A stretch of DNA of 64,000 nucleotides from Arcobacteraceae bacterium (GCA_048268245.1 JBLWVX010000001.1:32001-96000); one strand, 5' to 3'. Shown: positions 2,313-20,575, counted from the first letter of the stretch. The notes: generated by a model from the sequence alone, not told the origin. Numbers and translations are program-made.

Positions 2313-2351
2313 TCCAGTCCAATTTAAGAAGAACAACTTAAATTAGAGCAT

Positions 2352-2427
2352 GACCCGTTAGCTCAGCTGGTAGAGCATCTCCCTTTTAAGGAGGTGGCCG
2401 AAGGTTCGAATCCTTCACGGGTCACCA
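2352..2427 (+). tRNA. tRNA-Lys (TTT)
   Basis: Cloverleaf; anticodon loop CTTTTAA, GGTTCGAA T-loop, encoded CCA. Confidence 0.97.
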
Positions 2428-2445
2428 TTTAAATATTACTTTGAT

Positions 2446-2520
2446 GGCCCCTTCATCTAGCGGTTAGGATCCATGGTTTTCATCCATGTCACAGGAGTTC
2501 GAGTCTCCTAGGGGTCACCA
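2446..2520 (+). tRNA. tRNA-Glu (TTC)
   Basis: Anticodon arm CATGG-TTTTCAT-CCATG, T-loop, CCA. Confidence 0.97.
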
Positions 2521-2524
2521 TCAA

Positions 2525-2600
2525 GGTCGATTAGCTCAGTTGGTAGAGCGCTACCCTTACAAGGTAGATGTCAGAAGTTCGAGTCTTCTATCGACCACCA
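2525..2600 (+). tRNA. tRNA-Val (TAC)
   Basis: Anticodon arm CTACC-CTTACAA-GGTAG, T-loop, CCA. Confidence 0.97.
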
Positions 2601-2620
2601 CTTTCTTATTATAAAATCAT

Positions 2621-2697
2621 GCGGATGTAGTTTAGTTGGTTAGAATGCCTGCCTGTCACGCAGGAGGTCGCGAGTTCGAGTCTCGTCATCCGCGCCA
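2621..2697 (+). tRNA. tRNA-Asp (GTC)
   Basis: Anticodon arm CCTGC-CTGTCAC-GCAGG, T-loop, CCA. Confidence 0.97.
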
Positions 2698-2811
2698 TGA
2701 TTTAAAATTTCACACTTATCTTTTAATAATTTATTTAATCCCTTATAAAAGTGTTATTTTATATAAAAAAGGCTATCCTATTATAGTTAAATTTCAGGAA
2801 GCAAAAAATAA

Positions 2812-4395: not shown

Positions 4396-5038
4396 AGATG
4401 AATTAATGTTAAATAATGCCATTTGTGAGTATTTAAGAAATATTGGTCACATGGTAGAGAGTTTTACTGATGGACAAGATGCAATAGATAATATAGATAC
4501 ATCTTTTGATTTATTGATATTAGATATAAATGTTCCATCTAAAGATGGTTTTACAATTCTAGAAGATTTAAATAGAAAGAAAATCTATATACCAACTATA
4601 TTTATTTCTGCGTTAATAGATATAGAAGATATTTCAAAAGCATATGAACTAGGTGCAAGGGAGTACTTAAAAAAACCTTTCCACTTAGAAGAGTTAGGAA
4701 TTAAAATTAATCTAATTTTGAAAAAAGAGCAAAGTAATACATCTCATATTAGATTTTCAGAGAATTACTCATACTCAAAAGACAAACAAACACTATACTT
4801 TAATGGTGAACCTCAAAGTCTTACAAAAAAACAATTAGAAATTATTCATATATTAGCACTTAATATTAACATGATTGTAGACTTTGAAAGATTTAGAATT
4901 GATATCTGGGATGGAGAAAATATCGACAATCCAACTATAAGAGCTGAAATTTCAAGATTAAAGAAAGCACTAAAAGAAGACTTTATCAAAAATATCAGAG
5001 GTTTAGGCTACAAAATTGACAGATATTATTCTTCTTAA
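4376..5038 (+). CDS. OmpR/PhoB-family response regulator
   Basis: LLLEDE, phospho-Asp in LILDINVP, KPF, winged helix ending IRGLGY; overlaps the kinase gene by 20 nt. Confidence 0.92.
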   Translation: MKILLLEDELMLNNAICEYLRNIGHMVESFTDGQDAIDNIDTSFDLLILDINVPSKDGFTILEDLNRKKIYIPTIFISALIDIEDISKAYELGAREYLKKPFHLEELGIKINLILKKEQSNTSHIRFSENYSYSKDKQTLYFNGEPQSLTKKQLEIIHILALNINMIVDFERFRIDIWDGENIDNPTIRAEISRLKKALKEDFIKNIRGLGYKIDRYYSS

Positions 5039-5049
5039 CAAAGTACTAT

Positions 5050-5074
5050 AAAATGGCTCTTTCAGAGTCATTTT
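5050..5074 (+). terminator. Terminator-like hairpin after response regulator
   Basis: AAAATGGCTCT-ttc-AGAGTCATTTT. Confidence 0.55.
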
Positions 5075-5156
5075 GCTACGTTCATACTACGTTTAAAAAA
5101 ACTTTTTCAAAATTTTTTTCAATTGCTACCTTTTTGCTATCTACACTTATTATACT
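5074..5156 (+). promoter_or_regulatory. Promoter of first symporter operon with 11-bp-period TGCTA direct repeats
   Basis: TGCTACGTT/TACTACGTT at 5074/5085; TGCTA at 5124/5135; -10 TATACT at 5151. Confidence 0.6.
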
Positions 5157-5218
5157 TTCAATGTTAGATTATTAAACGCTTTAGAGTTTAATATCAAAAT
5201 CAATAAGGAGAGCAGAAT

Positions 5219-5473
5219 ATGAGTCCAGAAAAAGCACAAGCATACTGGAAAGAAAATATTTCAATGATACTTAAACTATTAGTAGTTTGGTTCGTTGTTT
5301 CTTTCGGATGTGGAATTTTATTCATAAATGAACTTAACACTATCGAAATTAGTGGTGTTAAATTAGGTTATTGGTTTGCACAACAAGGTGCAATTTACGT
5401 ATTTGTTATCTTAATCTTTATATACGTAAAGGTTATGACAAGTATCGATGAGAAATACGGCGTAAACGAGTAG
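5219..5473 (+). CDS. DUF4212-type small subunit of sodium:solute symporter
   Basis: AYWKEN..LVVWFVVSFG..GYWFAQQGAIYVF signature; two TM helices; directly upstream of SSS gene. Confidence 0.85.
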   Translation: MSPEKAQAYWKENISMILKLLVVWFVVSFGCGILFINELNTIEISGVKLGYWFAQQGAIYVFVILIFIYVKVMTSIDEKYGVNE

Positions 5474-5486
5474 GGAGAAAGAAAAG

Positions 5487-7382
5487 ATGGAATTACAATC
5501 ATTAATTTACCTATTCGTAGGTATTTCATTCGCAATTTATATTGGTATTGCACTTTGGGCAAAAGCTGGTTCAACTAAGGACTTTTATGTTGCAGGTGGG
5601 GGAGTTCACCCAGTAGCAAACGGTATGGCGACTGCTGCGGACTGGATGTCAGCTGCATCATTTATCTCTTTAGCAGGTATCATTTCATTCAAAGGTTCTG
5701 ATGGTGGTGCTTACTTAATGGGTTGGACTGGTGGATACGTTCTACTAGCAATGTTATTAGCACCTTACTTAAGAAAGTTTGGTAAGTTTACAGTTCCTGA
5801 TTTCGTTGGTGACAGATACTACTCTGACACAGCTAGATTAGTTGCAGTTATTTCAGTTATTTTCGTTTCGTTCACATATGTTGCTGGACAAATGAGAGGT
5901 GTTGGTATCGTATTCTCAAGATTCTTACAAGTTGATGTAAATACAGGTGTATTAATTGGTATGGCAATTGTATTCTTCTACTCTGTTCTTGGTGGTATGA
6001 AGGGTATTACATATACACAAGTTGCACAATATGTAGTAATGATTTTTGCATACATGATTCCTGCAATTTTCTTATCATTACAAGTTACTGATACGTTCTT
6101 ACCACAATTAGGTATTTTTGCAACTACTACATTTGCATTTGATTCAGGGGTACAAGTAATCCCAGAAGGCACATATCTGTTACATGCATTGGATACAGCT
6201 GTTTCTGATTTAGGATTCAATGAGTATACTCAACCAGGTAACTTATGGAATATGTTTATGTTAACTACTGCGTTAATGTTAGGTACTGCTGGTTTACCAC
6301 ACGTTATTGTTAGATTCTTTACAGTTCCAACTGTTAAAGATGCTAGAATTTCAGCAGGTTGGGCGTTAATCTTTATTGCATTAATGTATACAACTATTTC
6401 ATCTGTATCTTCATTCTCAAGAGTGAACTTAATTAAAAACTTACAAAATACTGAGTATAAAGCATTTGTTGCTGGTGAATTAAAGCATGCTGATGGTACA
6501 CCAAATGATGGTAACTGGTTTAAAACTTGGGAAAATGGTGGATTAATCGCATGGAATGATAGAAATGGCGATGGTAAAATCCAATATGCTACTGGAAAAG
6601 CTTTCGAAGGTGCTAAAGGTAAGCCTGCATTCGATGGTGATAAAAGAGCAGAAGATGGTCATAGATTAACTACTAACCCTGCTGGACCTGCATCTGAAGC
6701 TGAATTAGCTAAAGGTAATGGAATTGCAAATGAGTTATATGTTGATAGAGATATTATGGTACTTGCTAACCCTGAGATTGCAAACTTACCTAACTGGGTA
6801 ATCGCATTCATCGCAGCTGGTGGTCTTGCAGCAGCATTATCTACAGCAGCAGGTTTATTACTTGTAATTGCTTCAGCAATTTCACATGACTTAATGGGTC
6901 AAGTTATATTTAAAGATAAAGAAACTGGTAAATCTACATTAAACGAGAAAACTGAGTTAATGTGGGCAAGAATTTCAGCTGTAGCTGCTATTTGTGTTGC
7001 TGGTTACTTAGGAATTAACCCTCCAGGATTCGTTGCACAAGTTGTTGCGTTCGCATTTGGTTTAGCGGCAGCAGCATTCTTCCCAACAATTATCCTTGGT
7101 GTATTTGATAAGAGAATGAACAAAGAAGGTGCGATTGCTGGTATTTTAACTGGTTTAATTTTCACATTCGGTTACATTATCTACTTCGTATTCTTAGGTG
7201 GAGATCCAAAAGATTACTTCTTAGGAATTCATCCAACTGGTATTGGTACAATCGGTACATTACTTCACTTAATCGTGGCAGTAGTTGTTTCTAGAATGAC
7301 ACCAGAACCACCACAAGAAATTCAAGATCTAGTAGAGAAAATCAGAATCCCTTCAGGAGCTGGTGAGGCTGTAGATCACTAA
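5487..7382 (+). CDS. actP: Sodium:solute symporter, ActP-like (DUF4212-associated subfamily), probable acetate/monocarboxylate uptake
   Basis: [52 protein letters not shown]. Confidence 0.85.
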   Translation: MELQSLIYLFVGISFAIYIGIALWAKAGSTKDFYVAGGGVHPVANGMATAADWMSAASFISLAGIISFKGSDGGAYLMGWTGGYVLLAMLLAPYLRKFGKFTVPDFVGDRYYSDTARLVAVISVIFVSFTYVAGQMRGVGIVFSRFLQVDVNTGVLIGMAIVFFYSVLGGMKGITYTQVAQYVVMIFAYMIPAIFLSLQVTDTFLPQLGIFATTTFAFDSGVQVIPEGTYLLHALDTAVSDLGFNEYTQPGNLWNMFMLTTALMLGTAGLPHVIVRFFTVPTVKDARISAGWALIFIALMYTTISSVSSFSRVNLIKNLQNTEYKAFVAGELKHADGTPNDGNWFKTWENGGLIAWNDRNGDGKIQYATGKAFEGAKGKPAFDGDKRAEDGHRLTTNPAGPASEAELAKGNGIANELYVDRDIMVLANPEIANLPNWVIAFIAAGGLAAALSTAAGLLLVIASAISHDLMGQVIFKDKETGKSTLNEKTELMWARISAVAAICVAGYLGINPPGFVAQVVAFAFGLAAAAFFPTIILGVFDKRMNKEGAIAGILTGLIFTFGYIIYFVFLGGDPKDYFLGIHPTGIGTIGTLLHLIVAVVVSRMTPEPPQEIQDLVEKIRIPSGAGEAVDH

Positions 7383-7385
7383 AAC

Positions 7386-7415
7386 TAACAAGTATACCTT
7401 CGGGTATACTTTTAG
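7386..7415 (+). terminator. Intrinsic terminator with cUUCGg tetraloop
   Basis: AAGTATACC-TTCG-GGTATACTT followed by T residues. Confidence 0.8.
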
Positions 7416-7474
7416 TGTTTTTTTATGTTATTATAACTACTAATATAAAAAAATACTATTACAAGGAGACTTCA

Positions 7475-9289
7475 ATGAGTCTACAAGACCAGGAAGCATT
7501 TCTATCAAAAATCCACCCTTTTGAAGTATTGACTGAAGAACAACTAGACACTTGTATCAAACACATGGACATAGCTTACTATGCTAAAGACTCAACTTTA
7601 ATTAGTCCAGAAAAGATTCCAAACTATTTTTTTATCATAATAAAAGGTACTGTATACGAATACAAAGAAGATGAAGTTGTAATGGATTACCATCAACAAG
7701 ACTCTTTTGATGCAAACTCTTTAATATATGGAGAGAGTAAAAATACTTTTAAAGTTCATGAAGATTTAATTTGTTATGAACTTGAGAAAAAGACTTTTTT
7801 AAATCTAATTGAAAATAATAAAGCATTTAAAGACTTCTTTTTAGAAAATCTTGTAAATAGAATTAAAACACTTAAAGATAAAGAGTACACTTCTCAATTG
7901 TCATCTTTCATGATTGCAAAAGTCGATGATGCTCTTGTTCATGATGCATGTATTGTAGAAGAAGATACAAAACTTTTAGATGCAATCGAAAAATCAATGG
8001 AATATAAAACATCTACAATAATAGTAAAAAGAGATAATGAATATGGAATTATTACAGATTCACTTTTGAAAGTAAAAGTTTTACTAGAAGGTAGAGACTT
8101 AAGTATTCCTGTAAAAGAGATTGCTATTTTTCCACTAATGACAGTTTTTAATGATGACTATTTATTTGATGCTCTATCAGTTTTAATAAAAAGAAATATA
8201 AAAAGAGTTGGAGTAGTAAATTCTCAAGGAGAAATGCAAGGAATTTTAGAACAAATTGATGTTTTATCACACTTTGCGAATAATACTTATATAGTAGATA
8301 CACAAATTAAGAAATCTAAAAACATTGAAGATTTAAAAAATGCAAGTAAAGATTTACTTGATATTATAAAATCCCTACAAGCAAAAGGGGTAAAAGTCCA
8401 TCATATTTCAAACTTAATAGGACAATTAAATACAAAAGTTTATAAAAAACTATACAAATTAGTTGTTCCTGAAGAACTACAAAAAAGTGCCTGCTTTATT
8501 GTAATGGGAAGTGAGGGAAGAAATGAACAAATTATAAAAACAGATCAAGATAATGCTTTAGTAGTAAAAAGTGGAATTGATGTTGAACAATACAGACCAT
8601 ATATGGAAAAAATGACTGAAACACTAATTGATTTTGGATACCCACCATGCGAAGGTAATATTATGGTATCAAATCCATTTTGGTGTAAAACAGTTGATGA
8701 CTATAAAAAAGAAACTGCAAGATGGATTGAAGCACCTGATATGCAAAACTATATGGACTTAGCAATATTTTTTGACTCTTATGCAGTTGCTGGGGATAAA
8801 GAACTTTTAATTAATTTAAAAGATGATTTATTTAATAAACTTCATGATAAAGATGTATTTATGGCATATTTTGCAAAAGCTACTTTAACATTTGATACAC
8901 CAAGTACAGTGGCTAACTTTATGACTAAAAAACACACAATTGATATTAAAAAAACTGCTGTATTCCCAATAGTTCAAGGTATTAGAAGTTTAGCTTTAAG
9001 AGAAAGAATTAGAGAAACTACAACAGTAAGAAGAATCAAAATTTTAGAGCAAAGAAAAATTTTAGAAAAAGATAGAGCTGCTGAGCTACTTGAAGCTTTT
9101 GATGTTGTAAACACTTTAAGATTAAATGCCCATTTATCTTACTTGCAAGAAAATAAAGAACTTACAAATGACATAGATACTCACACTCTTGGTAAAATAG
9201 AAAGAGATTTATTAAAAGATTCATTCAAAATAGTTATAGACTTCAAAAAGTTTATAAATTATACATTTAAAATAGATAAGATTTCATAA
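7475..9289 (+). CDS. cNMP-binding + 2xCBS + DUF294 putative nucleotidyltransferase (GlnD/GlnE-like fold), copy 1
   Basis: IHPF..L N-terminal cNMP-like domain, CBS pair, GSEGRNEQ..TDQDNAL Pol-beta-type motif, GYPPCEGNIMVSNPFW; start ATG 7475 with AAGGAG. Confidence 0.85.
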   Translation: MSLQDQEAFLSKIHPFEVLTEEQLDTCIKHMDIAYYAKDSTLISPEKIPNYFFIIIKGTVYEYKEDEVVMDYHQQDSFDANSLIYGESKNTFKVHEDLICYELEKKTFLNLIENNKAFKDFFLENLVNRIKTLKDKEYTSQLSSFMIAKVDDALVHDACIVEEDTKLLDAIEKSMEYKTSTIIVKRDNEYGIITDSLLKVKVLLEGRDLSIPVKEIAIFPLMTVFNDDYLFDALSVLIKRNIKRVGVVNSQGEMQGILEQIDVLSHFANNTYIVDTQIKKSKNIEDLKNASKDLLDIIKSLQAKGVKVHHISNLIGQLNTKVYKKLYKLVVPEELQKSACFIVMGSEGRNEQIIKTDQDNALVVKSGIDVEQYRPYMEKMTETLIDFGYPPCEGNIMVSNPFWCKTVDDYKKETARWIEAPDMQNYMDLAIFFDSYAVAGDKELLINLKDDLFNKLHDKDVFMAYFAKATLTFDTPSTVANFMTKKHTIDIKKTAVFPIVQGIRSLALRERIRETTTVRRIKILEQRKILEKDRAAELLEAFDVVNTLRLNAHLSYLQENKELTNDIDTHTLGKIERDLLKDSFKIVIDFKKFINYTFKIDKIS

Positions 9290-9921
9290 TGTTTGCTAAT
9301 TTTATTAAAAACTGGAAAAAAAGATCTCTTAAAGATAAAAAATATCAATATCTTTTTGATGAACCATTAACTGATGAATATGTTTGTTTAGACTGTGAAA
9401 CTACAGGATTAAGTCCAAGAAAAGATGAGATTTTGTCAATTGGGGCTGTTGTTATTAAAAAAAACAAAATACTTATGAGAAAAACCTTAAATATTTTTGT
9501 TAAACCATCTAAAAAAATTGATTCAGAATCTATAAAAATACACCATATAAGACCTATTGATTTAGAAAACGCAGTAGATCCAAAAGATGCAATTTTAGAA
9601 CTTTTAGATTTTATAGGAAGTAGACCAATAGTTGGCTATTACATAAAATTTGATGTAGCAATGATCTCAAAATATACAAAAAAATATATTGGTATTTCTT
9701 TACCTAATGAAACCATAGAAGTTTCCTCTATGTATTACAAAACTAGAAAAAAATCAAGTGACTATGAATTTATTGATTTAAAATTCGATACTATTATGAA
9801 AGAACTTGAGCTTCCAAAACTTGGAAAGCATGATGCATTAAATGATGCAATTATGACTTCTATGATGTTTTTAAAGCTTAAAGACTTAACTCCAGCTAAA
9901 ACAACATTCTATACTAATTAA
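9289..9921 (+). CDS. DEDDh 3'-5' exonuclease family protein, copy 1
   Basis: LDCETTGL, KFD, HDALNDA; TAATG stop/start overlap with upstream gene. Confidence 0.88.
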   Translation: MFANFIKNWKKRSLKDKKYQYLFDEPLTDEYVCLDCETTGLSPRKDEILSIGAVVIKKNKILMRKTLNIFVKPSKKIDSESIKIHHIRPIDLENAVDPKDAILELLDFIGSRPIVGYYIKFDVAMISKYTKKYIGISLPNETIEVSSMYYKTRKKSSDYEFIDLKFDTIMKELELPKLGKHDALNDAIMTSMMFLKLKDLTPAKTTFYTN

Positions 9922-10046
9922 AAAAGAGAATTTAAAACGTTATTAGTTTCTCTTTTTATTAGCTTCTAAAAGTTACACTTACAAATATTTCTAATTAAAT
10001 TACACTTAAATTACATAAATGATATTTTCTTGTAAATTTATATATG

Positions 10047-10116
10047 TATAATTAATCTTATTTTTATTTAAATGCTACACTAATGCTATTTTTGCTATTT
10101 TCAGTGAATTTAGCAT
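10047..10116 (+). promoter_or_regulatory. Promoter region of second symporter operon with TGCTA repeats
   Basis: TATAAT at 10047; TGCTA at 10073, 10084, 10093; TAGCAT at 10111. Confidence 0.5.
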
Positions 10117-10148
10117 TTTAATTTAAATAAAATAACTAAGGAGGCAAA

Positions 10149-10463
10149 ATGAATGATGAGTTAGTACAACGAATCAAAAACAACCCTAAATATCAGGAGT
10201 TGGTACAAAAGAGAAGTGCATTCTCTCTAAAATTGGCAATTTTTGTATTGGTAATGTTTTATGCATATATTTTAACTATTGCATTTGATCCAACATTACT
10301 TGGTATAAAAACAGGTGAAGGTGTTATGACTTATGCATTCCCAGTGGCTGCTGCAATTATCATAATTGGTTTTATTACAACATTAATTTATGTTAAAAGA
10401 GCAAACGGCGAGTTTGAAGACTTAACTAATGAAATAAAAGATGATGTAAAGGATATTATGTAA
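10149..10463 (+). CDS. yjcH: DUF485 (YjcH-like) small membrane subunit of ActP
   Basis: [10 protein letters not shown], two TM helices, [17 protein letters not shown] overlap with actP. Confidence 0.88.
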
Positions 10464-12112
10464 TGTTTAGAATTATAGCACTAATTTCAATTTTTGCTGT
10501 GGCATTATTTGCTGCAGGAGATGCAAACTTCGAAGCATCAAAAAGAGAACTAAATATTCCAGCAATTATTATGTTCTTTATTTTTGTTGGTGGTACTTTA
10601 GGTATTACATATTGGGCAGCTAAAAAAACTAAATCTGCAAGTGATTTTTATACAGCAGGTGGAGGAATTTCTGGTTTCCAAAATGGTATGGCTATTGCAG
10701 GTGACTATATGTCAGCAGCATCATTCCTAGGTATTTCTGGTCTTGTTTACTTAAGTGGTTATGATGGATTAATTTATGCAGTTGGATTCTTAGTTGGATG
10801 GCCTGTAATTTTATTCTTAATGGCTGAAAAATTAAGAAACTTAGGTAAATTCACATTTGCTGATATTGCAGCTTATAGACTTGGACAAAAAGAGATTAGA
10901 ACTCTTGCAGCATTTGGTTCTCTGTCAGTTGTTACTTTATATTTAATTGCACAAATGGTTGGTTCAGGTAAACTGATTCAAGTATTATTTGGATTAGAGT
11001 ATGAATATGCTGTAATTCTTGTTGGTGTAATGATGATTATCTATGTAACATTTGGTGGTATGTTAGCTACTACTTGGGTTCAAATTATTAAAGCAGTATT
11101 ATTATTATCAGGGGTTTCATTTATGGGATTCATGGTATTAAGCCATTTTGGATTCTCTTTTGAAGCCTTAGCTACAAAAGCAGTTGAAACTCATGAAAAA
11201 GGTCAAGCAATCATGGAACCAGGAGGTTTTATTTCTGATCCAATTTCTGCTATTTCTTTAGGATTAGCATTAATGCTTGGTACTGCTGGTCTTCCTCATG
11301 TACTTATGAGATTTTTTACAGTTGGAAATGCTAAAGAAGCTAGAAAATCTGTTGTTTACGCAACTGGTTTTATTGGTTACTTCTACTTAGTAATTGCTGT
11401 TATTGGTTTAGGTGCAATTGTATTCTTAAACTCTGATGCAGGAGCTGTATATTTTGTTGATGGTAAACTATTTGGTGGAAATAATATGGCAGCAATTCAC
11501 TTATCACATATAGTAGGTGGTAATGTATTCTTAGGATTTATTTCAGCTGTTGCTTTTGCTACAATTTTAGCAGTTGTTGCAGGTCTTACACTTGCTGGTG
11601 CATCTGCAATTTCACATGATATTTATGCTTGTGTTATTAATCCAAATGCTTCTGAAGAGCAAGAAATTAAAGTTTCTAAAATAGCTGTAATTACAATTGG
11701 TATTGTAGGTGTTGTACTTGGTATTGCATTTGAAAATCAAAATATTGCATTTATGGTTGGTCTTGCATTTGCTATTGCTGCATCTGCTAATTTCCCTATT
11801 TTATTCTTATCTATTTATTGGAGAGGTTTAACTACAAGAGGTGCTTACCTTGGTGGATTTATTGGGTTACTAACTGCTGTTGTTTTAGTTATTGTAGGTC
11901 CTATTGTATGGGTACAAATTTTAGGAAATGAAGAAGCTTTATTCCCTTATAAACACCCTGCTTTATTCTCTGTAACTACAGCATTTATTGCAATTTGGTT
12001 CTTCTCTAAAACAGATAACTCTCAAAGAGCAAAAGATGAAAAAGAATTGTTTGAAGCACAAAATATTAGAGCTCAAACAGGTATTGGTGCATCAGGAGCA
12101 GTTGATCACTAA
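10463..12112 (+). CDS. actP: Cation/acetate symporter ActP
   Basis: [59 protein letters not shown]. Confidence 0.9.
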
Positions 12113-12118
12113 AACCAA

Positions 12119-12147
12119 TTACTAAAGAGATTTTTTCTCTTTAGTAA
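12119..12147 (+). terminator. Terminator-like hairpin
   Basis: TTACTAAAGAGA-ttttt-TCTCTTTAGTAA. Confidence 0.7.
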
Positions 12148-12345
12148 CAAATTATTATAACTATTACTAATTTTCACACTATAATTACAACTTTTATGAA
12201 ACTTTATGAAATTATAAAAATTTTCTTAAAAATTACAACTAATCTCTATATATAAATATAGCTTTTTTTGTTACTTTTTTACATTTTTTACATTTTATTT
12301 ACATATTTAATCAATTTTTTTTAATTATAAATAATTTTTTACATG

Positions 12346-12403
12346 TATAATAGAACTGTTTTTTCTTATTTGCTATTTTATTGCTATTGGTTTTAAAGAG
12401 AAT
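12346..12403 (+). promoter_or_regulatory. Promoter region of third symporter operon with TGCTA-N6-TGCTA
   Basis: TATAAT at 12346; TGCTA at 12371 and 12382; weak GAGAAT at 12398. Confidence 0.5.
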
Positions 12404-12457
12404 AAGAATTAGTTTTATGCATAATTTAATTTATGCAATAACGAAAAAGGAAGCAGA

Positions 12458-12772
12458 ATGAACGAAAAGTTAGTAGAGAGGATTGACAATAACCCTAAGT
12501 ATCATGAGCTAGTTTCAAAAAGAAATAGTTTTGGTATCAAATTAGGGATATTTGTTTTAGTGATGTTTTATGCATATATCTTAACAATTGCATTCAACAA
12601 AGAAATTTTAGCAACTAAAATAGGTGATGGTTTAACAACTGTAGCATTTCCTATTGCATTAGCTATCTTAATTATCAGTTTTATCACAACAGTGATTTAT
12701 GTTAGAAGAGCAAATGGGGAGTTTGAAGACCTAACAAATGAAATTAAAGAAGATGTAAAGGATTTAGTGTAA
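12458..12772 (+). CDS. yjcH: DUF485 (YjcH-like) small membrane subunit, second copy
   Basis: Same length (104 aa) as, and clearly paralogous to, 10149..10463. Confidence 0.88.
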
Positions 12773-14421
12773 TGTTTAGAATTTTAGCGCTTATTTCAGT
12801 TATTTCTTTAACAGCATTTGCAGCAGGTGATGCATCTTTTGAAGCTACAAAAAGAGAATTAAATATTCCTGCAATTATTATGTTCTTCATTTTTATTTTA
12901 GGAACATTAGGTTTAACATACTGGGCAGCAAAAAAAACAAAATCTGCTAGTGACTTCTATACAGCTGGTGGAGGAATCACAGGTTTTCAAAATGGTTTAG
13001 CAATTGCAGGTGACTATATGTCAGCAGCTGCATTCTTAGGTGTATCTGGTCTTATTTATATGAAAGGTTATGATGGAGTTATCTATGCTGTATCATTCTT
13101 AGTTGGTTGGCCAATTATTCTTTTCTTCATGGCTGAGAAATTAAGAAACTTAGGTAAGTTTACATTTACAGATATCGCAGCATACAGATTAGGTCAAAAA
13201 CAAATCAGAACATTAGCTGCATTTGGTACTATCTCTGTTGTTATATTATACCTTATTGCACAAATGGTTGGTGCTGGTAAATTAATTCAAGTTTTATTTG
13301 GTATGGAATATGAATTTGCAGTAATCCTTGTTGGTGTTATGATGATTATCTACGTAACATTTGGTGGTATGCTTGCAACTACATGGGTTCAAATTATTAA
13401 GGCATGTTTACTTTTATCTGGTGTTTCATTTATGGCTATCATGGTTTTATATCACTTTGATTTTAGTTTTGAATCATTAGCTGTAAAAGCTGTTGAAAAT
13501 CACAGTGCTGGTGAGTCAATTTTAGCTCCTGGTGGATTTATATCTGACCCTATTTCAGCTATTTCTTTAGGTATGGCTTTAATGCTAGGAACTGCTGGTC
13601 TTCCACACGTTCTTATGAGATTCTTTACAGTTGGTAATGCTAAAGAAGCTAGAAAATCTGTTGTTTATGCAACTGGTTTTGTTGGTTACTTCTGGATTAT
13701 CATTACAATCGTTGGTTTTGGTGCGATTGCATTCTTAAACTCTGATGCAGGTGCTGCGTACTTTGTTGATGGTAAGTTATTTGGTGGAAACAATATGGCA
13801 TCTATTCACTTATCACATATGTTAGGTGGTAATGCATTCTTAGGATTTATTTCAGCAGTTGCATTTGCTACTATTTTAGCAGTTGTATCTGGTCTTACAT
13901 TATCAGCAGCAGGTGCTATTTCTCATGATCTTTATGCAAATGTAATTAACACAAATTCTACAGATGAACAAGTAGTTAAAGTATCTAGATATACAGTTGT
14001 TTTAGTTGGTATTGTAGGTGTTACATTAGGTATTGCGTTTGAGCAACAAAATATTGCTTATATGGTTGGTCTTGCATTTGGTATTGCAGCATCAGCTAAC
14101 TTCCCAATTTTATTCTTATCAATTTACTGGTCTCAGTTAACAACAAGAGGGGCATTCTTAGGTGGATTATGTGGTCTTATCTCTGCTGTTACACTTGTAA
14201 TTGTTGGACCAATTGTATGGGTACAAATTTTAGGAAATGAAGAAGCATTATTCCCTTATAAACACCCTGCTCTATTCTCTGTAACAATTGCATTTGTTGC
14301 TATCTGGTTCTTCTCTAAGACAGATAATTCAGAAAAAGGGAAAGCGGAGAAAAAATTATTTAAAGCTCAAAATATTAGAGCAAATACAGGTATTGGTGCA
14401 GCAGGAGCTGTTGATCACTAA
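12772..14421 (+). CDS. actP: Cation/acetate symporter ActP, tandem paralog
   Basis: Same length (549 aa) and collinear with 10463..12112. Confidence 0.9.
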
Positions 14422-14429
14422 GCCTTTTA

Positions 14430-14461
14430 AAATATCAAAGAAGGTTACTTCTTTGATATTT
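14430..14461 (+). terminator. Terminator-like hairpin
   Basis: AAATATCAAAGAAG-gtta-CTTCTTTGATATTT. Confidence 0.7.
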
Positions 14462-14603
14462 ATTATTAACTACAAATTTTAAAATCTAACTTATAACATT
14501 ACTATAAAATTTACTTATATTATATTTTACACTATTTAATTCTAGTAATTATTATTTTATTTTTTATTAGCTAAAATAAATAAAGAGAAATTAGGAAACA
14601 TAA

Positions 14604-16445
14604 ATGAGTATATTAGAACAGAAAACATTTTTAAGTTCAATTCATCCTTTTGAGCACTTAACAAAAGCTCAACTAGATGTCTTTTCAGAACATATAGATA
14701 TTGTATATTTCAAAAAAAATGAAATAATACAAAAGCAAGGAGCTGAACCAAAGTTTTTATACTTTGTATTAAAAGGAATAGTACAAGAAAAACAAGAAGA
14801 TGAAGTATTATCAATTTTTTCAAAAAACGAACTATTTGATGCAATTTCACTAATTGAAAACTATTCAAAACATACATTCGTTACAGCACAAGAAACAATT
14901 TGTTATTCTTTACCAAGAGAAATATTTATCAAAACTTTACATGAGAATCAAAACTTAGAAAGCTATTTCTTTCAATCAATTTCACAAAAACTTAACAATC
15001 ATGTTGACCAAGAAAAAAATAAAGAGATTGCAAATATCATGATTGCAAAAGTAAAAGATGCCAATGTACATAATGCAGTTATTACAGATACACAAAAAAC
15101 TATATTTGAAGCTGCTACAATAATAAAAGAAGAAAAGGTCCCAACTTTACTTCTAAGAGATGAAAATGATGAAATGTATATTGTTACAGATTCAGATTTT
15201 AGACAAAAAGTAATTTTAAATAGAATGGATTTTGATGATAAAATCATAAAGATAGCATCAAAAGGTTTAATCTATGTAAATGAAAATGATTTTTTATTTA
15301 ATGCCCAATTAATTATGGCAAAACATGGACTAAAAAGAGTTGTTGTTAAAAATGATAAAAATGAAATAGTTGGTATCTTAGATCAAATTTCACTATCTTC
15401 ATTTTTTGCAACTAATACATTCTCTGTTTCAAATCAAATTGTAAAAGCAGAAACTATTGAAGAATTAAAACAAGCTTCACTATCATTTATAAAAATAGTT
15501 AAATCTTTAAATGCAAAAGGTGTAAAAGTTGAATTTATTGCAAAACTAATAAATCAACTAAATAAAAAACTAATTGCAAAACTATTTAGTTTCTTAGCTC
15601 CTGATGAATTAAAAGGTAAATCATGTTTAGTTGTAATGGGAAGTGAAGGAAGAAGTGAGCAAATTTTAAAAACAGATCAAGATAATGCATTGATACTAGC
15701 AGATGATTGTGAAATAAGTGATGAGAAATTAAATGAGTTTACACATAAGTTTACAGAAACCTTAGTTAATTTTGGTTTTCCGAGATGTGAGGGTAATATC
15801 ATGGTTTCTAATCCATATTGGAGAAGAAGAAAAAAAGATTTTAAAGATTTAATTTACTCTTGGGTTAATGAACCAAGTCCTGATAATATGATGAATACTG
15901 CAATTTTTTATGACTCAATTTGTATAGCAGGTGACAAACAAATAATTCTTGATTTAAAAGAATACTTATTTAAGGTTGTAGGAGACACACAAACATTTAA
16001 CTCACAATTTGCAAAAGTTATCATGAGTTTTGATGTACCTTTAGGTTTCTTTGATGGTTTTGTATTTAATAGTGATGATAAAGAGCATAAAGATGAACTT
16101 GATATAAAAAAAGGTGGGATATTTATTTTAGTTCAAAGTATTAGAGCATTAAGTTTAGAAAAAAAACTATTTAATACAAATACAATAAAAAGAGTAAAAG
16201 CTCTAAAAGAGATGGGTATATTTGATGATGAATTTGCACAAGAAGTTATCATGGCATTTAACTATTTATCAAATCTAAAACTAAAATCAAATTTAGAAAA
16301 AATTGATAAAAAAGAAAATATTGACAACTATATTAATCCTGATGATTTAAATACAATGCAAAAAGACTTATTAAAAGACTCTTTTAAAATTGTTAATAAA
16401 TTAAAGAAAAAATTAGAATACCATTTTAAGTTGAACTATGTTTAG
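14604..16445 (+). CDS. cNMP-binding + 2xCBS + DUF294 putative nucleotidyltransferase, copy 2
   Basis: IHPF, CBS pair (VTDSDFR; GILDQ), GSEGRSEQILKTDQDNAL, GFPRCEGNIMVSNPYW, LDIKKGG. Confidence 0.85.
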   Translation: MSILEQKTFLSSIHPFEHLTKAQLDVFSEHIDIVYFKKNEIIQKQGAEPKFLYFVLKGIVQEKQEDEVLSIFSKNELFDAISLIENYSKHTFVTAQETICYSLPREIFIKTLHENQNLESYFFQSISQKLNNHVDQEKNKEIANIMIAKVKDANVHNAVITDTQKTIFEAATIIKEEKVPTLLLRDENDEMYIVTDSDFRQKVILNRMDFDDKIIKIASKGLIYVNENDFLFNAQLIMAKHGLKRVVVKNDKNEIVGILDQISLSSFFATNTFSVSNQIVKAETIEELKQASLSFIKIVKSLNAKGVKVEFIAKLINQLNKKLIAKLFSFLAPDELKGKSCLVVMGSEGRSEQILKTDQDNALILADDCEISDEKLNEFTHKFTETLVNFGFPRCEGNIMVSNPYWRRRKKDFKDLIYSWVNEPSPDNMMNTAIFYDSICIAGDKQIILDLKEYLFKVVGDTQTFNSQFAKVIMSFDVPLGFFDGFVFNSDDKEHKDELDIKKGGIFILVQSIRALSLEKKLFNTNTIKRVKALKEMGIFDDEFAQEVIMAFNYLSNLKLKSNLEKIDKKENIDNYINPDDLNTMQKDLLKDSFKIVNKLKKKLEYHFKLNYV

Positions 16446-17058
16446 AATTATAAAAAACTATTTTAATAAAAAAAATCTAAAAGACGATAAATATCAATAT
16501 CTATTTGATAAAGCTCATGAAGATGAATATGTTTGTTTTGATTGTGAAACAACAGGTTTAGATCCCAAAAAAGATGAAATAATCTCAATAGGTGCTGTAA
16601 TCATAAAAAACAATACAATTATTTCAAGTAAAAAATTTGTAAAGTTTGTAAAACCAAAAACTAAACTTCAAGAAGATGCTATTAAAGTACATCATATAAG
16701 AGAGATGGATTTAGAAAATGCTTTAAATATTGATGATGTTATTTATGAATTCTTAGATTATATAGGGAATAGAACACTTGTAGGATATTTTTTAGAGTTT
16801 GATATTGCAATGATAGATAAATATGTAAAACCTAGACTTGGTATTTCTTTACCTAATAAAAGAATTGAAGTATCTGCAATCTATCATGACTATAAAATAG
16901 AAGCTATACCACAAGGGAATATAGATTTAAGATTTGACACAATTATGAATGAATTACAAATTCCTGTTATGGGAAAACATGATGCATATAATGATGCATT
17001 AATGACTTCATTAATATTTTTGAAATTAAAAAATATTTCAAAGCTAAAAATACAATAA
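16438..17058 (+). CDS. DEDDh 3'-5' exonuclease family protein, copy 2
   Basis: FDCETTGL, EFD, HDAYNDA; 8-nt overlap with upstream gene. Confidence 0.88.
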   Translation: MFRIIKNYFNKKNLKDDKYQYLFDKAHEDEYVCFDCETTGLDPKKDEIISIGAVIIKNNTIISSKKFVKFVKPKTKLQEDAIKVHHIREMDLENALNIDDVIYEFLDYIGNRTLVGYFLEFDIAMIDKYVKPRLGISLPNKRIEVSAIYHDYKIEAIPQGNIDLRFDTIMNELQIPVMGKHDAYNDALMTSLIFLKLKNISKLKIQ

Positions 17059-17141
17059 AGGAAACTTAAACTATGCTAAACTATCAAAAGTGTTACATTT
17101 ACTTTTGATAGATACGTAAAACGTTAATTTTTTATTCATTT

Positions 17142-17342
17142 TGTACAATAATTGTACATTAATAAAGTAATATATAACACTTAAGAGCCATTTAGACCAT
17201 ATTTTATTACGATTCTGCACATTTTCTTTTTTTATCAAATTTTATGTATATTTTATGTACTTTTCGAAAAATATAATATACAATATAAATGATCAAGATT
17301 ATAAACCAATGCTATTTTTTTGCTATGGTTATAAATTATAAT
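17142..17342 (+). promoter_or_regulatory. Composite pta-ackA promoter region with three 11-bp-period direct repeats
   Basis: TGTACA x2 (17142/17153); TGTATA/TGTACT (17245/17256) then TATAAT 17272; TGCTA x2 (17310/17321) then TATAAT 17337. Confidence 0.6.
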
Positions 17343-17377
17343 CTTTCACAAGTTTTTAAAGTAGAAAGGATAACTTA

Positions 17378-18373
17378 ATGGGTTTAATTAAAAGCATTAA
17401 AGAAAAAGCAAAGTTACAGCTAAGAACTATCGTTCTTCCCGAAACAGAAGATGAAAGAGTATTAAAAGCTACTCAAAAAGTTCTTGAAGAGAAAACTGCA
17501 AATGTTGTATTAATAGGTAATGAAGAAACAATCAAATCTGATGCTTCATCATGTGATGCAAATATTGAAGGAGCAACAATTGTTGACCCTAGAAAGTTTG
17601 AAAACATTGATAAATATATTGATGAGTTAGTTGAACTTAGAAAAAAGAAAGGTTTAACAAGAGAAGAAGCTACTGAAATCATGTTAAATGAACCTAGATT
17701 CTTTGGTTGTATGATGGTTAGACTTGGAGATGCTGATGGTTTAGTTGCAGGTTCTAACTCTCCTACGGCTGATGTTTTAAAAGCTGCTATTCAAGTTATT
17801 AAAACTGCACCTGGTATTAATACTGTATCATCTGCATTTATTATGGAAACTGCTGATGGAAAGTTTGGAGACAATGGTTTAATTCTATTTGCAGATTGTG
17901 CTGTTATTCCAGAACCAAATGCAGAACAATTAGCTGATATTGCTTGTGCAACTGCTGCTACTGCTAACTCTGTTGTAGGATTAGATCCAAGAGTTGCTAT
18001 GTTATCATTTTCAACAAAAGGTAGTGCAAATCATCCATTAGTTGATAAAGTACAATACGCTGTTGATATTTTACAAGAAAGAAATGTTGACTTCTCATTT
18101 GATGGTGAAATGCAAGCTGATGCAGCAATCGTTGAAGCAATTGGAGCTAAAAAAGCACCAGGCTCAGAAGTAGCTGGTAAAGCAAATGTTCTTGTATTCC
18201 CAGATTTACAATCAGGAAATATTGGATATAAATTAGTTCAAAGATTTGCAGATGCTGCAGCTCATGGACCAGTTGTTCAAGGTTTAGCAAAACCTGTAAA
18301 TGACCTTTCAAGAGGTTGTTCAGTTGATGATATCGCAAACTTAGTAGCTATTACAGCAACTCAAATTAAATAA
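17378..18373 (+). CDS. pta: Phosphate acetyltransferase (short, catalytic-domain-only form)
   Basis: IVLPE.EDER, FADCAV, AMLSFSTKGS, DGEMQADAA, FPDLQSGNIGYK, NDLSRGC. Confidence 0.95.
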   Translation: MGLIKSIKEKAKLQLRTIVLPETEDERVLKATQKVLEEKTANVVLIGNEETIKSDASSCDANIEGATIVDPRKFENIDKYIDELVELRKKKGLTREEATEIMLNEPRFFGCMMVRLGDADGLVAGSNSPTADVLKAAIQVIKTAPGINTVSSAFIMETADGKFGDNGLILFADCAVIPEPNAEQLADIACATAATANSVVGLDPRVAMLSFSTKGSANHPLVDKVQYAVDILQERNVDFSFDGEMQADAAIVEAIGAKKAPGSEVAGKANVLVFPDLQSGNIGYKLVQRFADAAAHGPVVQGLAKPVNDLSRGCSVDDIANLVAITATQIK

Positions 18374-18402
18374 TTAAATCTATAAAAAAAAGGAAGCAAA
18401 AT

Positions 18403-19605
18403 ATGTTAGTATTTATCTTAAACGCAGGAAGTTCATCTCTTAAATATCAATTAATGAACCCAGTTACAAAAGAGACTTTAGCAGCAGGAATTTGTGAAAG
18501 AATTGGAATTGATGGTCTTTTAAAGCATGAGTTTGGTAATGATCAAGAATTAAAAATTGATGTAAATATGCCAACACATAAAGAAGCTATTGAGCTTGTT
18601 TTAAGAACATTAATTGATGGTGAAGGTAAAGTAATTGATTCTATTGATGATATTGAAGCAATTGGTCATAGAGCAGTTCATGGAGGAGAAGAGTTTGCTT
18701 CATCTGTAATAGTTACAGAAAAAGTAATAGAAACTATGAAAAAATTAATTCCACTTGCTCCATTACATAACCCAGCAAATATTATGGGAATGGAAATTTG
18801 TCAAGAATTAATGCCTGGAAAACCTAATGTAGCTGTGTTTGATACTGCTTTTCACCAAACTATGCCTGATTATGCTTATATGTATGCTTTACCAAAAGAT
18901 CAATATACTAAACATGGTATTAGAAAATATGGTTTCCATGGAACTTCTCACTACTTTGTTTCAAATGAAGCAAGAAAAATGTTAGATAAAAAACATAATA
19001 CTAGAATTATTGTATGTCATTTAGGAAATGGCTCTTCTGTTTCTGCTGTACAAAATGGAGAATGTATTGATACATCTATGGGACTTACACCTGTTCAAGG
19101 TTTAATGATGGGAACAAGAGCTGGAGATGTTGGAGCTGGTGCATTACAATACATGATGAGTCAAGAAGGTTTAACAATTGATGAAGCTTTAAATATTATG
19201 AATAAAAAATCAGGTATTTTAGGTATTTCTGGAAAATCTTCTGATTTAAGAGAAGTATTAGAAGGTATGCAAGAAGGTGATGATAATTGTAGATTAGCAG
19301 TAGATATGGTTGCATATAATATTAAAAAATATGTAGGTGCTTATGTGGCAGCTTTAGATGGAATAGATGCTTTATGTTTCACTGGTGGTATTGGTGAAAA
19401 TGCTGCATTAATTAGAGAAAAAGTTTGTGCTGGATTAGATGCAATGGGACTAGTTATTGATCCAGTTAAAAATAACAAAAGATCAAGAGAAGCAAGAGAT
19501 ATTGCAACAAATGGCTCTTCTTCAAGAATTTTTGTTATCCCTACTAATGAAGAATACGTTATTGCTAATGATACTTTTAAAATCGTTTCAGGACTTGAAA
19601 AATAA
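18403..19605 (+). CDS. ackA: Acetate kinase
   Basis: NAGSSSLK, GHRAVHGG, APLHN, FDTAFH, YGFHGTSH, HLGNG, TGGIGEN, PTNEE. Confidence 0.97.
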   Translation: MLVFILNAGSSSLKYQLMNPVTKETLAAGICERIGIDGLLKHEFGNDQELKIDVNMPTHKEAIELVLRTLIDGEGKVIDSIDDIEAIGHRAVHGGEEFASSVIVTEKVIETMKKLIPLAPLHNPANIMGMEICQELMPGKPNVAVFDTAFHQTMPDYAYMYALPKDQYTKHGIRKYGFHGTSHYFVSNEARKMLDKKHNTRIIVCHLGNGSSVSAVQNGECIDTSMGLTPVQGLMMGTRAGDVGAGALQYMMSQEGLTIDEALNIMNKKSGILGISGKSSDLREVLEGMQEGDDNCRLAVDMVAYNIKKYVGAYVAALDGIDALCFTGGIGENAALIREKVCAGLDAMGLVIDPVKNNKRSREARDIATNGSSSRIFVIPTNEEYVIANDTFKIVSGLEK

Positions 19606-19627
19606 TTTATTTTTTAAATTTTCTATA

Positions 19628-19662
19628 AAAAAAGGGATGAAGATAAACTTCATCCCTTTTTT
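19628..19662. terminator. Bidirectional terminator between convergent ackA and sppA
   Basis: AAAAAAGGGATGAAG-ataaa-CTTCATCCCTTTTTT. Confidence 0.85.
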
Positions 19663-19684
19663 ATTTTTAATATACAAATACTAT

Positions 19685-20575
19685 CTAATAAGCTTTTAAA
19701 GAGTTTACAAAAGTCATAGAAACTTTTGAAACTGTTTCATTTATAATTTTATCCATAAACTTTTCAAACTTATCTTGCTTTTTCCAAATAGGATAATCAA
19801 CTTTTGATAATTTCTCTAACTTATCTTTAGCATAAGAAATAGTAGCAACTTCATCTACAAGTCCAACTTCTTTTGCTTGTCTTGATGTAAAAACTCTAGC
19901 ATCTGCGAATTTTGTATGATTTTCTACTTTTAATCCTCTTGCACTTGCAACATCATTTATAAACATATTATAAGTGTCATCAATTATTGATTGTAATTGT
20001 TCTTTTTCATAATCAAACCATTTTCTAGTTGGTGTTCCTGACTCTTTATACTTACCAGCTTTTACAGTTTGTGTTGAAATACCAATTTTAGCCATCAACT
20101 CTTCTGTATTTACACCTTGCATAATAACACCAATAGACCCAACCATACTTCCAGGATTGGCAATAATTTCATTTGCCCAAATAGAAGCATAATATGAACC
20201 ACTAGCAATTACACCACTTGCATAAACAACAACAGGTTTTACTTCTTTTAACTCTTTAATTGCATAAGCTAATTCAACAGAAGGTGCAACAGCTCCTCCA
20301 GGGGAATTCACTTCAAGCAATACACCTTTTATATTATCAGACTCTTTTGCTTTTTGTAATTGTTCTAAAGTCTTATTCACATCTAATATTGGTCCAAATA
20401 ATACTATTTTTTGTAAATTAGCAACTTCATAAGAGCCTTTAGTTTCATTACTACTTCCTGTTCCATAAACTACAAAGTATACAATTGTCAAAAAAACTAC
20501 TGTTTTAAAATATTTTGTAATAAAATCCAAAACAGCAATTATTGGATAAAAAAGTTTCTTTATAAAATTAAACAT
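19685..20575 (-). CDS. sppA: Signal peptide peptidase SppA (S49)
   Basis: NSPGG, ASGSYY, GSIGV, KAGKYK. Confidence 0.92.
   Translation of the reverse strand: MFNFIKKLFYPIIAVLDFITKYFKTVVFLTIVYFVVYGTGSSNETKGSYEVANLQKIVLFGPILDVNKTLEQLQKAKESDNIKGVLLEVNSPGGAVAPSVELAYAIKELKEVKPVVVYASGVIASGSYYASIWANEIIANPGSMVGSIGVIMQGVNTEELMAKIGISTQTVKAGKYKESGTPTRKWFDYEKEQLQSIIDDTYNMFINDVASARGLKVENHTKFADARVFTSRQAKEVGLVDEVATISYAKDKLEKLSKVDYPIWKKQDKFEKFMDKIINETVSKVSMTFVNSLKAY

Follow-up and report, generated by a model that had tools for sequence, protein, structure and literature searches.

We analyzed a stretch of 64,000 nucleotides (nt) from the genome of an Arcobacteraceae bacterium (GCA_048268245.1, JBLWVX010000001.1:32001-96000; hereafter, the window, with positions counted from its first letter), in which two copies of a gene pair each encode a DUF294 protein with a putative nucleotidyltransferase (NTase) domain and a DEDDh 3'-5' exonuclease. 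The listing of open reading frames (ORFs), together with Pfam and NCBIfam models, describes a compact locus for the uptake of short-chain acids, with all genes on the + strand, in a region where G+C is 24-36% (positions 1-24000). A first-pass annotation made from the sequence alone had described two complete paralogous pairs behind sodium/solute symporter (SSS) genes, one after a DUF4212-type symporter (7475-9921) and one after a DUF485/ActP-type symporter (14604-17058), and the ORFs and Pfam domains agree with that description (Table 1). As argued below, each pair may act as a switch on the transporter encoded ahead of it.

Table 1. Features of the short-chain acid uptake locus, in order of position in the window.
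Feature	Position	Strand	Basis or remark
Malate:quinone oxidoreductase-like gene	258-1661		just upstream of the locus
Four-tRNA cluster	2352-2694		just upstream of the locus
Sensor histidine kinase (sCache_2/dCache_2 - HisKA - HATPase_c)	2812-4395	+	Pfam
OmpR-type response regulator, partner of the kinase	4376-5038	+	Pfam Response_reg and Trans_reg_C
TGCTAY-N5-TGCTAT direct repeat	5124-5140, 10073-10089, 12371-12387, 17310-17326	+	4 matches, 0.04 expected
DUF4212 small symporter subunit	5219-5473	+	PF13937, E 1e-34; TIGR03647, 115.9 bits (cut-off 26)
VC_2705-family sodium/solute symporter, large subunit	5487-7382	+	PF00474; TIGR03648, 795.8 bits (cut-off 320.75)
Symporter C-termini	7290-7382, 12020-12112, 14329-14421	+	shared tail
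9-bp hairpin, then T-rich run	7390-7411	+	immediately 3' of the symporter stop codon
Pair 1 DUF294 protein, candidate writer (cNMP-like - CBS pair - DUF294 NTase - DUF294_C)	7475-9289	+	Pfam
Pair 1 DEDDh 3'-5' exonuclease, NF006601/PRK09145 family	9289-9921	+	RNase_T, E 2e-28; NF006601
DUF485 (YjcH-like, 10149-10463) and ActP copy 1 (10463-12112)	10149-12112	+	Pfam PF04341; NF006903, 904.8 bits (cut-off 750)
DUF485 (12458-12772) and ActP copy 2 (12772-14421)	12458-14421	+	Pfam
Perfect 14-bp hairpin, 4-nt loop	14430-14461	+	directly after the ActP copy 2 stop codon; read by eye
Pair 2 DUF294 protein, candidate writer (cNMP-like - CBS pair - DUF294 NTase - DUF294_C)	14604-16445	+	Pfam, AlphaFold
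Pair 2 DEDDh 3'-5' exonuclease	16438-17058	+	RNase_T; NF006601
pta (17378-18373) and ackA (18403-19605)	17378-19605	+	Pfam; acetate metabolism

For both symporter types the genes of the small and large subunits are adjacent and score above the cut-offs of their NCBIfam or Pfam family models. ActP copies 1 and 2 share 82% identity, and the actP equivalog TIGR02711 scores 842.7 bits, under its cut-off of 1099; ActP-type and VC_2705-type symporters are about 30% identical.

The likeness between the two pairs goes far beyond chance, with 40% identity over the full length of the DUF294 proteins (E 6e-156) and 58% between the exonucleases (E 7e-81), and the pairs stem from an old duplication. Copy 1 of the DUF294 protein starts at ATG 7475, which has an AAGGAG ribosome-binding site ahead of it; a longer form beginning at GTG 7415 is unlikely. 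Stop and start codons overlap within each pair, as TAATG at 9287-9291 in pair 1 and over 8 nt at 16438-16445 in pair 2, and these overlaps fit the translational coupling that had been read from the sequence at first pass. The nearest database relatives of the DUF294 protein come from Arcobacter, Poseidonibacter and Malaciobacter. Copy 1 matches PF03445 with 133.8 bits (E 5e-39) and PF10335 with 120.4 bits, and copy 2 matches them with 133.3 and 142.3 bits, against Pfam cut-offs of 21 and 22.5 bits. Both copies carry the NTase motif MGSEGR(N/S)EQI(I/L)KTDQDN (G-x11-D-x-D), whose G, S, E, G, R, E, Q, D, Q, D and N residues are either invariant or conserved to at least 90% in 84 relatives of 24-67% identity; over the same 84 sequences this holds for G346, D358-Q-D360 and a third acidic residue, D437. 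Ahead of the NTase, Pfam finds an N-terminal PF00027 domain and a PF00571 pair, the latter seen in the AlphaFold model as two CBS-type beta-alpha units, so that both sensor domains named in the first-pass annotation are present. The cyclic-phosphate contacts are lost, however: the cNMP-like domain has FD...KH-TF in place of the GE...RSAT of PKG and lacks the canonical phosphate-binding cassette, and the family consensus shows the same loss. Because the cassette is missing, binding of cAMP or cGMP by this domain is doubtful.

The exonucleases are equally complete. Both copies have D35, E37, D122, H181 and D186 (numbered as in copy 2), each conserved to at least 90% in 57 relatives, and the stretches DCETTGL, FD and KHDA.ND supply the Exo I D-x-E, Exo II D and Exo III H-x4-D, so the earlier claim of intact catalytic residues in both enzymes is borne out in the window and in its relatives. 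NF006601 (PRK09145) matches over positions 1-203 of 207, with 277.9 bits in copy 1 and 275.1 bits in copy 2 (cut-off 189). The dnaQ equivalogs fail, TIGR01406 at 44.1 and 60.7 bits (cut-off 222.7) and NF004316 at 45.7 and 60.6 bits (cut-off 196). The RNase_T domain takes up residues 32-190 of 210 and 32-194 of 206, with only 12-20 residues beyond it. The C-terminal tail of epsilon binds the alpha subunit of the polymerase, and an extension of this kind is missing from both exonucleases. Four other DEDDh genes lie in the genome, one of them exceeding the NF006316 cut-off, so the window enzymes are not needed as a proofreader. By sequence their closest solved relatives, led by 2p1j (E 1e-16) and 8h18 in the PDB, are exonuclease domains from PolC and DnaQ. 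The conserved segment at their N-terminus (L14, L22, F23) is missing from the fused forms described below. Y19 in this segment was considered as a self-target and rejected, being just 60-90% conserved among 69 sequences and gone, with the whole segment, in the fusions.

The two genes are regularly found together. A scan with one genome per species gave 78 loci with 88 DUF294 genes; 82 of these genes had at least 700 nt of downstream DNA, and in 73 an exonuclease ORF lies directly 3' of DUF294. The exonucleases that follow are mostly of 194-223 residues. Two are of 709-716 residues (L029, L081), with RNase_T at the C-terminus after a large N-terminal part in which PAS_4 was detected in L081 alone. 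Sixteen gammaproteobacterial loci were picked for their odd ORF lengths and so do not sample the group at random; in three, one gene encodes a single chain of the form RNase_T-CBS-DUF294-DUF294_C. When the first 330 residues of one such fusion served as query, 648 proteins matched at E <=1e-3, and PF00929 and PF03445 occur together in 118 of the best 120 matches. Among 117 full-length fusions none has lost any of the five DEDDh residues, and the NTase motif is kept in 116. With both active sites retained in one chain, the NTase and exonuclease activities appear, on this sequence evidence, to work together and both to be needed. Searching for fusions from the window exonuclease instead yielded one 382-residue DUF294_C and RNase_T protein (P0275, a single-member cluster), which was not counted as a fusion, its junction looking like a frameshifted read-through. 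Another architecture, seen in L118 and L119, is an 858-residue sCache_2-PAS-CBS-DUF294 membrane protein that has no cNMP domain. ArgRS comes after DUF294 in the three loci of the Competibacteraceae/Thiomargarita group scanned downstream, and in L023 and L024, both from Competibacteraceae, the order is ActP, DUF294, ArgRS and a protein joining tRNA_edit to HDOD.

Upstream, the usual neighbor is a symporter. Sixty-seven DUF294 genes had at least 2.5 kb of DNA ahead of them; 41 stand behind an ActP-type symporter, 14 behind a DUF4212-type symporter and 12 behind neither, the neighbors of these last including Acs, a kinase/receiver pair and lactate-utilisation genes. Of the 55 same-strand upstream symporters, 51 lie within 268 nt of DUF294. 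The first-pass annotation had named genome-wide co-occurrence as a check on the link, and in 400 sampled gammaproteobacterial genomes, of which 91 had DUF294, 30 ActP and 76 the DUF4212-type symporter, one or the other symporter is present in 68 of the 91 genomes with DUF294 versus 35 of the 309 without it (odds ratio 23, Fisher p 7e-31, with phylogeny ignored). The module is not specific to acetate, as its neighbors also include Acs and BCCT. Three gammaproteobacterial loci (L122, L123, L124) place a cNMP-CBS-DUF294 protein beside a BCCT (betaine/carnitine/choline) transporter, which makes the link one to secondary transporters in a wider sense; the exonuclease follows in L123 and L124, and a universal stress protein gene lies near the module in L122. 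A single in-frame stop, TAA or TGA, interrupts the VC_2705-type symporter match in four of the sampled genomes (G253, G399, G221, G233). Three of these genomes are small (1.2-1.9 Mb) and G233 is of 3.2 Mb; the interrupted genes may be pseudogenes that go with genome reduction, or the stops may be sequencing errors.

The kinship of the NTase was examined through its predicted fold. AlphaFold modelled copy 2 with a predicted local distance difference test (pLDDT) score of 92, and the NTase module alone with a pLDDT of 94 and a predicted template modelling (TM) score of 0.90. Foldseek searches with the module gave four matches at E <=0.001, to DrrA (6yx5_B) and the two halves of GlnE (3k7d_B, 3k7d_A, 1v4a); the range E 9e-8 to 2e-6 is limited to DrrA and GlnE, DrrA having TM scores of 0.66/0.65, and MntA and aminoglycoside NTases come next at E 0.04 or worse. 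VIA, which is independent of Foldseek and covered 48,161 chains, likewise ranked the GlnE N-terminal domain (Z 26.0), DrrA (25.1) and the GlnE C-terminal domain (24.7) highest, with alignments that span 292-297 of 334 residues, after which the listed rows cover one domain only; the next match to the full module is an aminoglycoside NTase at Z 8.8. Pol beta, CCA-adding enzymes, poly(A) polymerase, OAS and CD-NTase were not among the 50 matches listed by either Foldseek or VIA, and the missing matches to polymerases and cyclic-oligonucleotide synthases favor, without amounting to proof, a protein or a small molecule as the acceptor. By sequence the nearest family is GlnD: the NTase domain of the genome's own GlnD scores 25.7 bits on PF03445 (cut-off 21), and hhalign pairs the GlnD and DUF294 profiles across the catalytic motif (E 2.3e-4, probability 45%). 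A sequence profile of the NTase module found no match among solved structures even at E <=10, and the full-length profile matched cNMP and CBS domains only, among the best 60 matches. Fold searches and GlnD kinship together support the earlier assignment of DUF294 as a putative NTase of the GlnE/GlnD/DrrA kind.

Phylogenies were built by a quick method with SH-like approximate likelihood ratio test (SH-aLRT) support only and no mixture model, and proteins under 560 residues were excluded. In a tree of 87 DUF294 proteins the transporter label, ActP versus DUF4212-SSS, switches once. The DUF4212-linked proteins of Campylobacterota form one clade (27 rows, support 99), and its sister is an ActP-linked clade of Sulfuricurvum, Sulfurimonas and Sulfurimonadaceae, as named by record titles. 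With 28 gammaproteobacterial proteins added (115 rows) the label changes twice: the DUF4212-linked proteins of Gammaproteobacteria group apart, in a deep clade of their own (17 rows, support 100) that is about 24-27% identical to copy 1 of the window, while the symporter itself is 59-67% identical between the phyla. Pair 1 is therefore not an orthologue of the gammaproteobacterial DUF4212-linked pairs, and under a midpoint root it is placed as a duplicate of an ActP-linked pair that became attached to the other symporter. Tree congruence was another check that had been named at first pass, and the exonuclease mirrors DUF294: its tree recovers the copy 2 clades (12 and 20 rows) and the copy 1 clade (22 rows), and distances in the two trees correlate at r 0.75, a value matched in 0 of 500 permutations. 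Judged from these trees, the pair has moved as a unit. Ten related loci, with titles naming Aliarcobacter, Arcobacter, Halarcobacter and Campylobacteraceae, hold both pairs in the order of the window, and this shared retention argues that the two pairs are not redundant. The cognate pairing proposed at first pass is thus upheld in that each lineage keeps to one transporter subfamily, but "cognate" does not mean anciently co-evolved, because the DUF4212-linked copy was redeployed from an ActP-linked ancestor.

The arrangement that the first-pass annotation named from Pseudomonas is real, and the window pairs belong to a known, uncharacterised module represented by PA3233/PA3232, PP_0354/PP_0353 and Pflu5625. 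In published accounts, the module is co-regulated with actP and acs in Pseudomonas; the PA3232-PA3235 cluster of P. aeruginosa is induced about 16-fold on propionate, the PP_0353-PP_0354 operon of P. alloputida is among the genes most dependent on MxtR/ErdR, and Pflu5625 of P. fluorescens belongs to the CrbS/R regulon, its deletion having a negligible effect on acetate and its authors predicting regulation by nucleotidylation. The idea of protein nucleotidylation is thus already in print, as speculation. The same sources report that, on pyruvate, knockouts of the P. alloputida exonuclease (PP_0353), actP-I and yjcH are impaired and that a knockout of DUF294 (PP_0354) has little or no effect; loss of the exonuclease therefore mimics loss of transport and loss of DUF294 is silent, as an inhibitory writer and a relieving eraser would predict. 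For the DUF4212 subunit, Price et al. report cofitness with a gene close by that is described as an 'RNAse T domain protein', Sama_1525 in Shewanella amazonensis and Psest_0349 in P. stutzeri. From gene order and number, as the fourth gene of the operon, we infer that these are the exonucleases of the pair; the order DUF4212, SSS, DUF294 and exonuclease occurs in five gammaproteobacterial loci, and the gammaproteobacterial DUF4212-linked clade presumably includes the Shewanella and P. stutzeri cases. No biochemistry or biochemical function of the module was found in open-access papers and preprints. New here are the whole-domain fold match to GlnE and DrrA, the counts of adjacency and fusion, the co-occurrence with symporters and the origin of the DUF4212-linked copy in the ActP-linked lineage.

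Set beside the Pseudomonas modules (a COG2905 protein and an RNase T-like protein), the window pairs consist of the same two genes with the same domain order, similarly tied to yjcH-actP and to the use of acs, and in Pseudomonas induced on acetate or propionate; window DUF294 proteins are 32-44% identical to gammaproteobacterial ActP-linked ones (L082-L092). The Pseudomonas pair, however, forms a separate operon under CrbS/R (MxtR/ErdR), whereas the window has two paralogous pairs, each right behind a symporter, and its likely regulator is a Cache kinase/OmpR pair with a TGCTAY-N5-TGCTAT site of its own. The one-chain proteins of Gamma-, Beta- and Alphaproteobacteria, some of which adjoin SSF symporters and Acs, contain the same two catalytic domains and CBS pair with active sites kept; they carry the exonuclease in place of the N-terminal cNMP-like domain, unlike the separate, translationally coupled enzymes of the window.

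Among well-known nucleotidylation systems, GlnE and GlnD share with DUF294 the Pol-beta NTase core, G-x11-D-x-D and a helical substrate-binding domain. Writer and eraser are combined in one protein in GlnD (NTase and HD) and in GlnE, GlnD-GlnK-AmtB is a precedent for the control of a transporter through nucleotidylation, and a GlnD of the NTase and HD type is present in this genome. The erasers differ, being a second NTase domain in GlnE, an HD domain in GlnD and a DEDDh nuclease in the window; so do the sensors, which are ACT domains and PII/glutamine for GlnE and GlnD as against CBS domains and a degenerate cNMP domain here, and unlike GlnD and GlnE the window pairs have no PII-like target encoded nearby. 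DrrA/SidM, a Legionella AMPylase, is the best structural match to DUF294 over the whole module, at a sequence identity of just 11-14%. It has a separate de-AMPylase, SidD, of phosphatase fold, and it differs from DUF294 as a secreted effector that acts on host Rab1 and carries guanine nucleotide exchange factor and lipid-binding domains. The window exonucleases, for their part, have the DEDDh fold and five catalytic residues of DnaQ (epsilon) and PolC; unlike DnaQ, they fail the equivalog cut-offs, have no polymerase-binding tail and possess the conserved N-terminal segment.

The explanation that we prefer, though with slightly less than even confidence, is that each pair is an antagonistic nucleotidylation switch tuning the transporter encoded ahead of it, with DUF294 inhibitory and the exonuclease relieving. 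The DUF294 protein would read a cytoplasmic ligand, probably an adenosine nucleotide, through its CBS pair, and its GlnE/DrrA-type active site would then place a nucleoside monophosphate (NMP) on a hydroxyl of a protein of the transport system, which might be the symporter or its small subunit, or else some factor that works on these; uptake would fall. The co-translated DEDDh enzyme would hydrolyse the phosphodiester and free 5'-NMP, restoring uptake.

Several observations weigh against this explanation. The protein target is something we infer; an AMPylase-like fold leaves the acceptor unfixed, aminoglycoside NTases sharing the fold class, and we know of no DEDDh enzyme that takes NMP off a protein. 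Nine of the scanned DUF294 genes had no exonuclease ORF directly downstream; two of these are artefacts of ORF calling that still bear exonuclease signal and another is L032 from Sulfurospirillaceae, but the other six (L020, L022-L024, L026, L027) belong to a Competibacteraceae/Thiomargarita group whose DUF294 genes have no exonuclease next to them. The co-occurrence statistic does not allow for shared ancestry, and 23 of the 91 gammaproteobacterial genomes with DUF294 gave neither symporter with the queries used. Modules beside BCCT transporters, in three loci, and beside Acs mean that the target need not be of the ActP type. In Pseudomonas, knockout phenotypes are weak on acetate, and growth on propionate is lower in the PP_0353 and PP_0354 knockouts and not in those of actP or yjcH, a result that a simple on/off model of ActP leaves unexplained.

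A candidate for the mark's position was sought in the C-terminal tail that the symporters share, ...[IV]R..(T)G.GA..(A/G)..H, in which His is the last residue. It is present in 64 of 68 ActP-type and 31 of 32 DUF4212-type transporters that adjoin DUF294. We also fetched 16 ActP stretches, of which 3 had no usable ORF and 6, more distant, had no tail. The other seven, all close gammaproteobacterial orthologues of 55-66% identity with readable tails, from genomes without a DUF294 hit (L134-L138, L140, L141), keep it in every case, a further point against the proposed switch. The tail was therefore rejected as a target mark, not being specific to regulated transporters.

The same pairing of a writer with an eraser could serve a diffusible signal: DUF294, with its CBS domains occupied, would make a small linear or unusual (oligo)nucleotide that the DEDDh enzyme degrades, and the signal would act on the transporter or on metabolism, an option that the first-pass annotation had also named. 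DEDDh enzymes are 3'-5' phosphodiesterases on nucleic acids and short oligonucleotides, as in Orn-type nanoRNases, a synthase and its degrader would explain adjacency, fusion and opposite mutant phenotypes equally well, and a signal that diffuses would ease linkage to transporter families as unrelated as SSS and BCCT. We nevertheless consider this unlikely, because the whole NTase module matches protein AMPylases alone at high score, OAS, cGAS and CD-NTase are not among the 50 matches that each fold search listed, the operon shows no evident receptor domain for the signal, and the cNMP-like domain is without its phosphate-binding residues. Quite unlikely, in our judgement, is that the chemistry is as we propose and the target an enzyme or regulator of short-chain acid metabolism, such as acetyl-CoA synthetase, Pta/AckA or a PII-like adaptor. 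Acs adjoins the pair in several loci (L028, L019, L125, L126, L129), pta-ackA comes after pair 2 in the window, and, in the published work, both module knockouts grow worse on propionate when actP and yjcH knockouts do not; yet the immediate upstream neighbor is a symporter in 55 of 67 informative loci and Acs only occasionally, BCCT-linked modules have no tie to acetate enzymes, and on pyruvate the exonuclease knockout resembles those of the transporter.

Control at the level of RNA, in which DUF294 would extend the 3' end of the symporter mRNA, or of a small RNA, by nucleotides that the exonuclease would trim, setting transcript stability, has in its favor the trimming of RNA 3' ends by RNase T-type enzymes and the hairpin found ahead of each pair, right after the stop codon of the transporter. 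In the speculation of Price et al., expression requires the cofit gene. We judge such control highly improbable, however, since RNA-tailing NTases are not among the 50 matches listed in the fold searches, Rfam finds no family besides four tRNAs at 2000-20000, and the C-terminal helical domain is of the GlnE/DrrA substrate-binding type and not an RNA-binding body domain. It is scarcely credible, finally, that the exonuclease does no more than proofread or repair DNA and lies where it does by coincidence. PolC and DnaQ domains are its best solved relatives by sequence, and databases often label such proteins 'DNA polymerase III subunit epsilon', but the window enzymes reach 44-61 bits on dnaQ_proteo against 275-278 bits on NF006601, end without an epsilon-type tail after the catalytic domain, share the genome with the further DEDDh genes noted above, and belong to a family whose adjacency and fusion to DUF294 are systematic. 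On adjacency, fusions, co-occurrence, published genetics and the four other DEDDh paralogues, the view taken at first pass, that the module is regulatory and does not serve DNA repair, holds, and the same applies to replication.

Expression of the locus has features of its own. The kinase upstream is probably a carboxylate sensor whose sensor part is MctS-like; NF052443 (MctS) matches residues 9-224 with 105 bits, under the cut-off of 700. Copies of the direct repeat TGCTAY-N5-TGCTAT lie 52-79 nt 5' of the operon starts of DUF4212-SSS, both DUF485-ActP units and pta-ackA, and in the window neither DUF294 gene is preceded by one. Across 25 related loci the repeat precedes the equivalent operons and also acs and a porin gene, and it is probably the binding site of the OmpR-type regulator. 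The hairpins after the two symporter genes may attenuate read-through, so that less of the regulator than of the transporter is made; the one at 14430-14461 has few G-C pairs and was not called by the terminator scan. A sigma-70 promoter scan gave 78 matches versus 102 in shuffled sequence and is uninformative at 28% G+C, and Rfam returned only the four tRNAs mentioned above. In nine related Arcobacteraceae loci (L005, L006, L008, L009, L011, L046, L047, L050, L064) pta is separated from exonuclease 2 by one or two additional acetate-kinase-like genes, which score about 500-540 bits against the window AckA where the orthologue scores 750-800; the window has none.

The module is found in about a quarter of the sampled gammaproteobacterial genomes (91 of 400) and is widespread in Campylobacterota, and, in the published work, its genes are among those most strongly controlled by the Pseudomonas regulator of acetate and propionate use. 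A bolder generalization, possible but doubtful in our view, is that a DEDDh exonuclease of the DnaQ type was co-opted to remove nucleotides from proteins, or to degrade an undescribed nucleotide mark. With a CBS-gated writer resembling GlnE/DrrA it would make up a gate, general and portable, that controls secondary transporters (ActP, VC_2705-type SSS, BCCT) after translation, a proteobacterial and campylobacterial counterpart of GlnD-GlnK-AmtB that would be present here in two non-interchangeable copies, one per carboxylate symporter. The window offers a natural experiment in this respect, with two diverged pairs behind different symporters in one small genome. If the switch that we prefer is real, the module would bring a new eraser chemistry for protein nucleotidylation and a new bacterial throttle by which energy state limits the uptake of short-chain acids and osmolytes.

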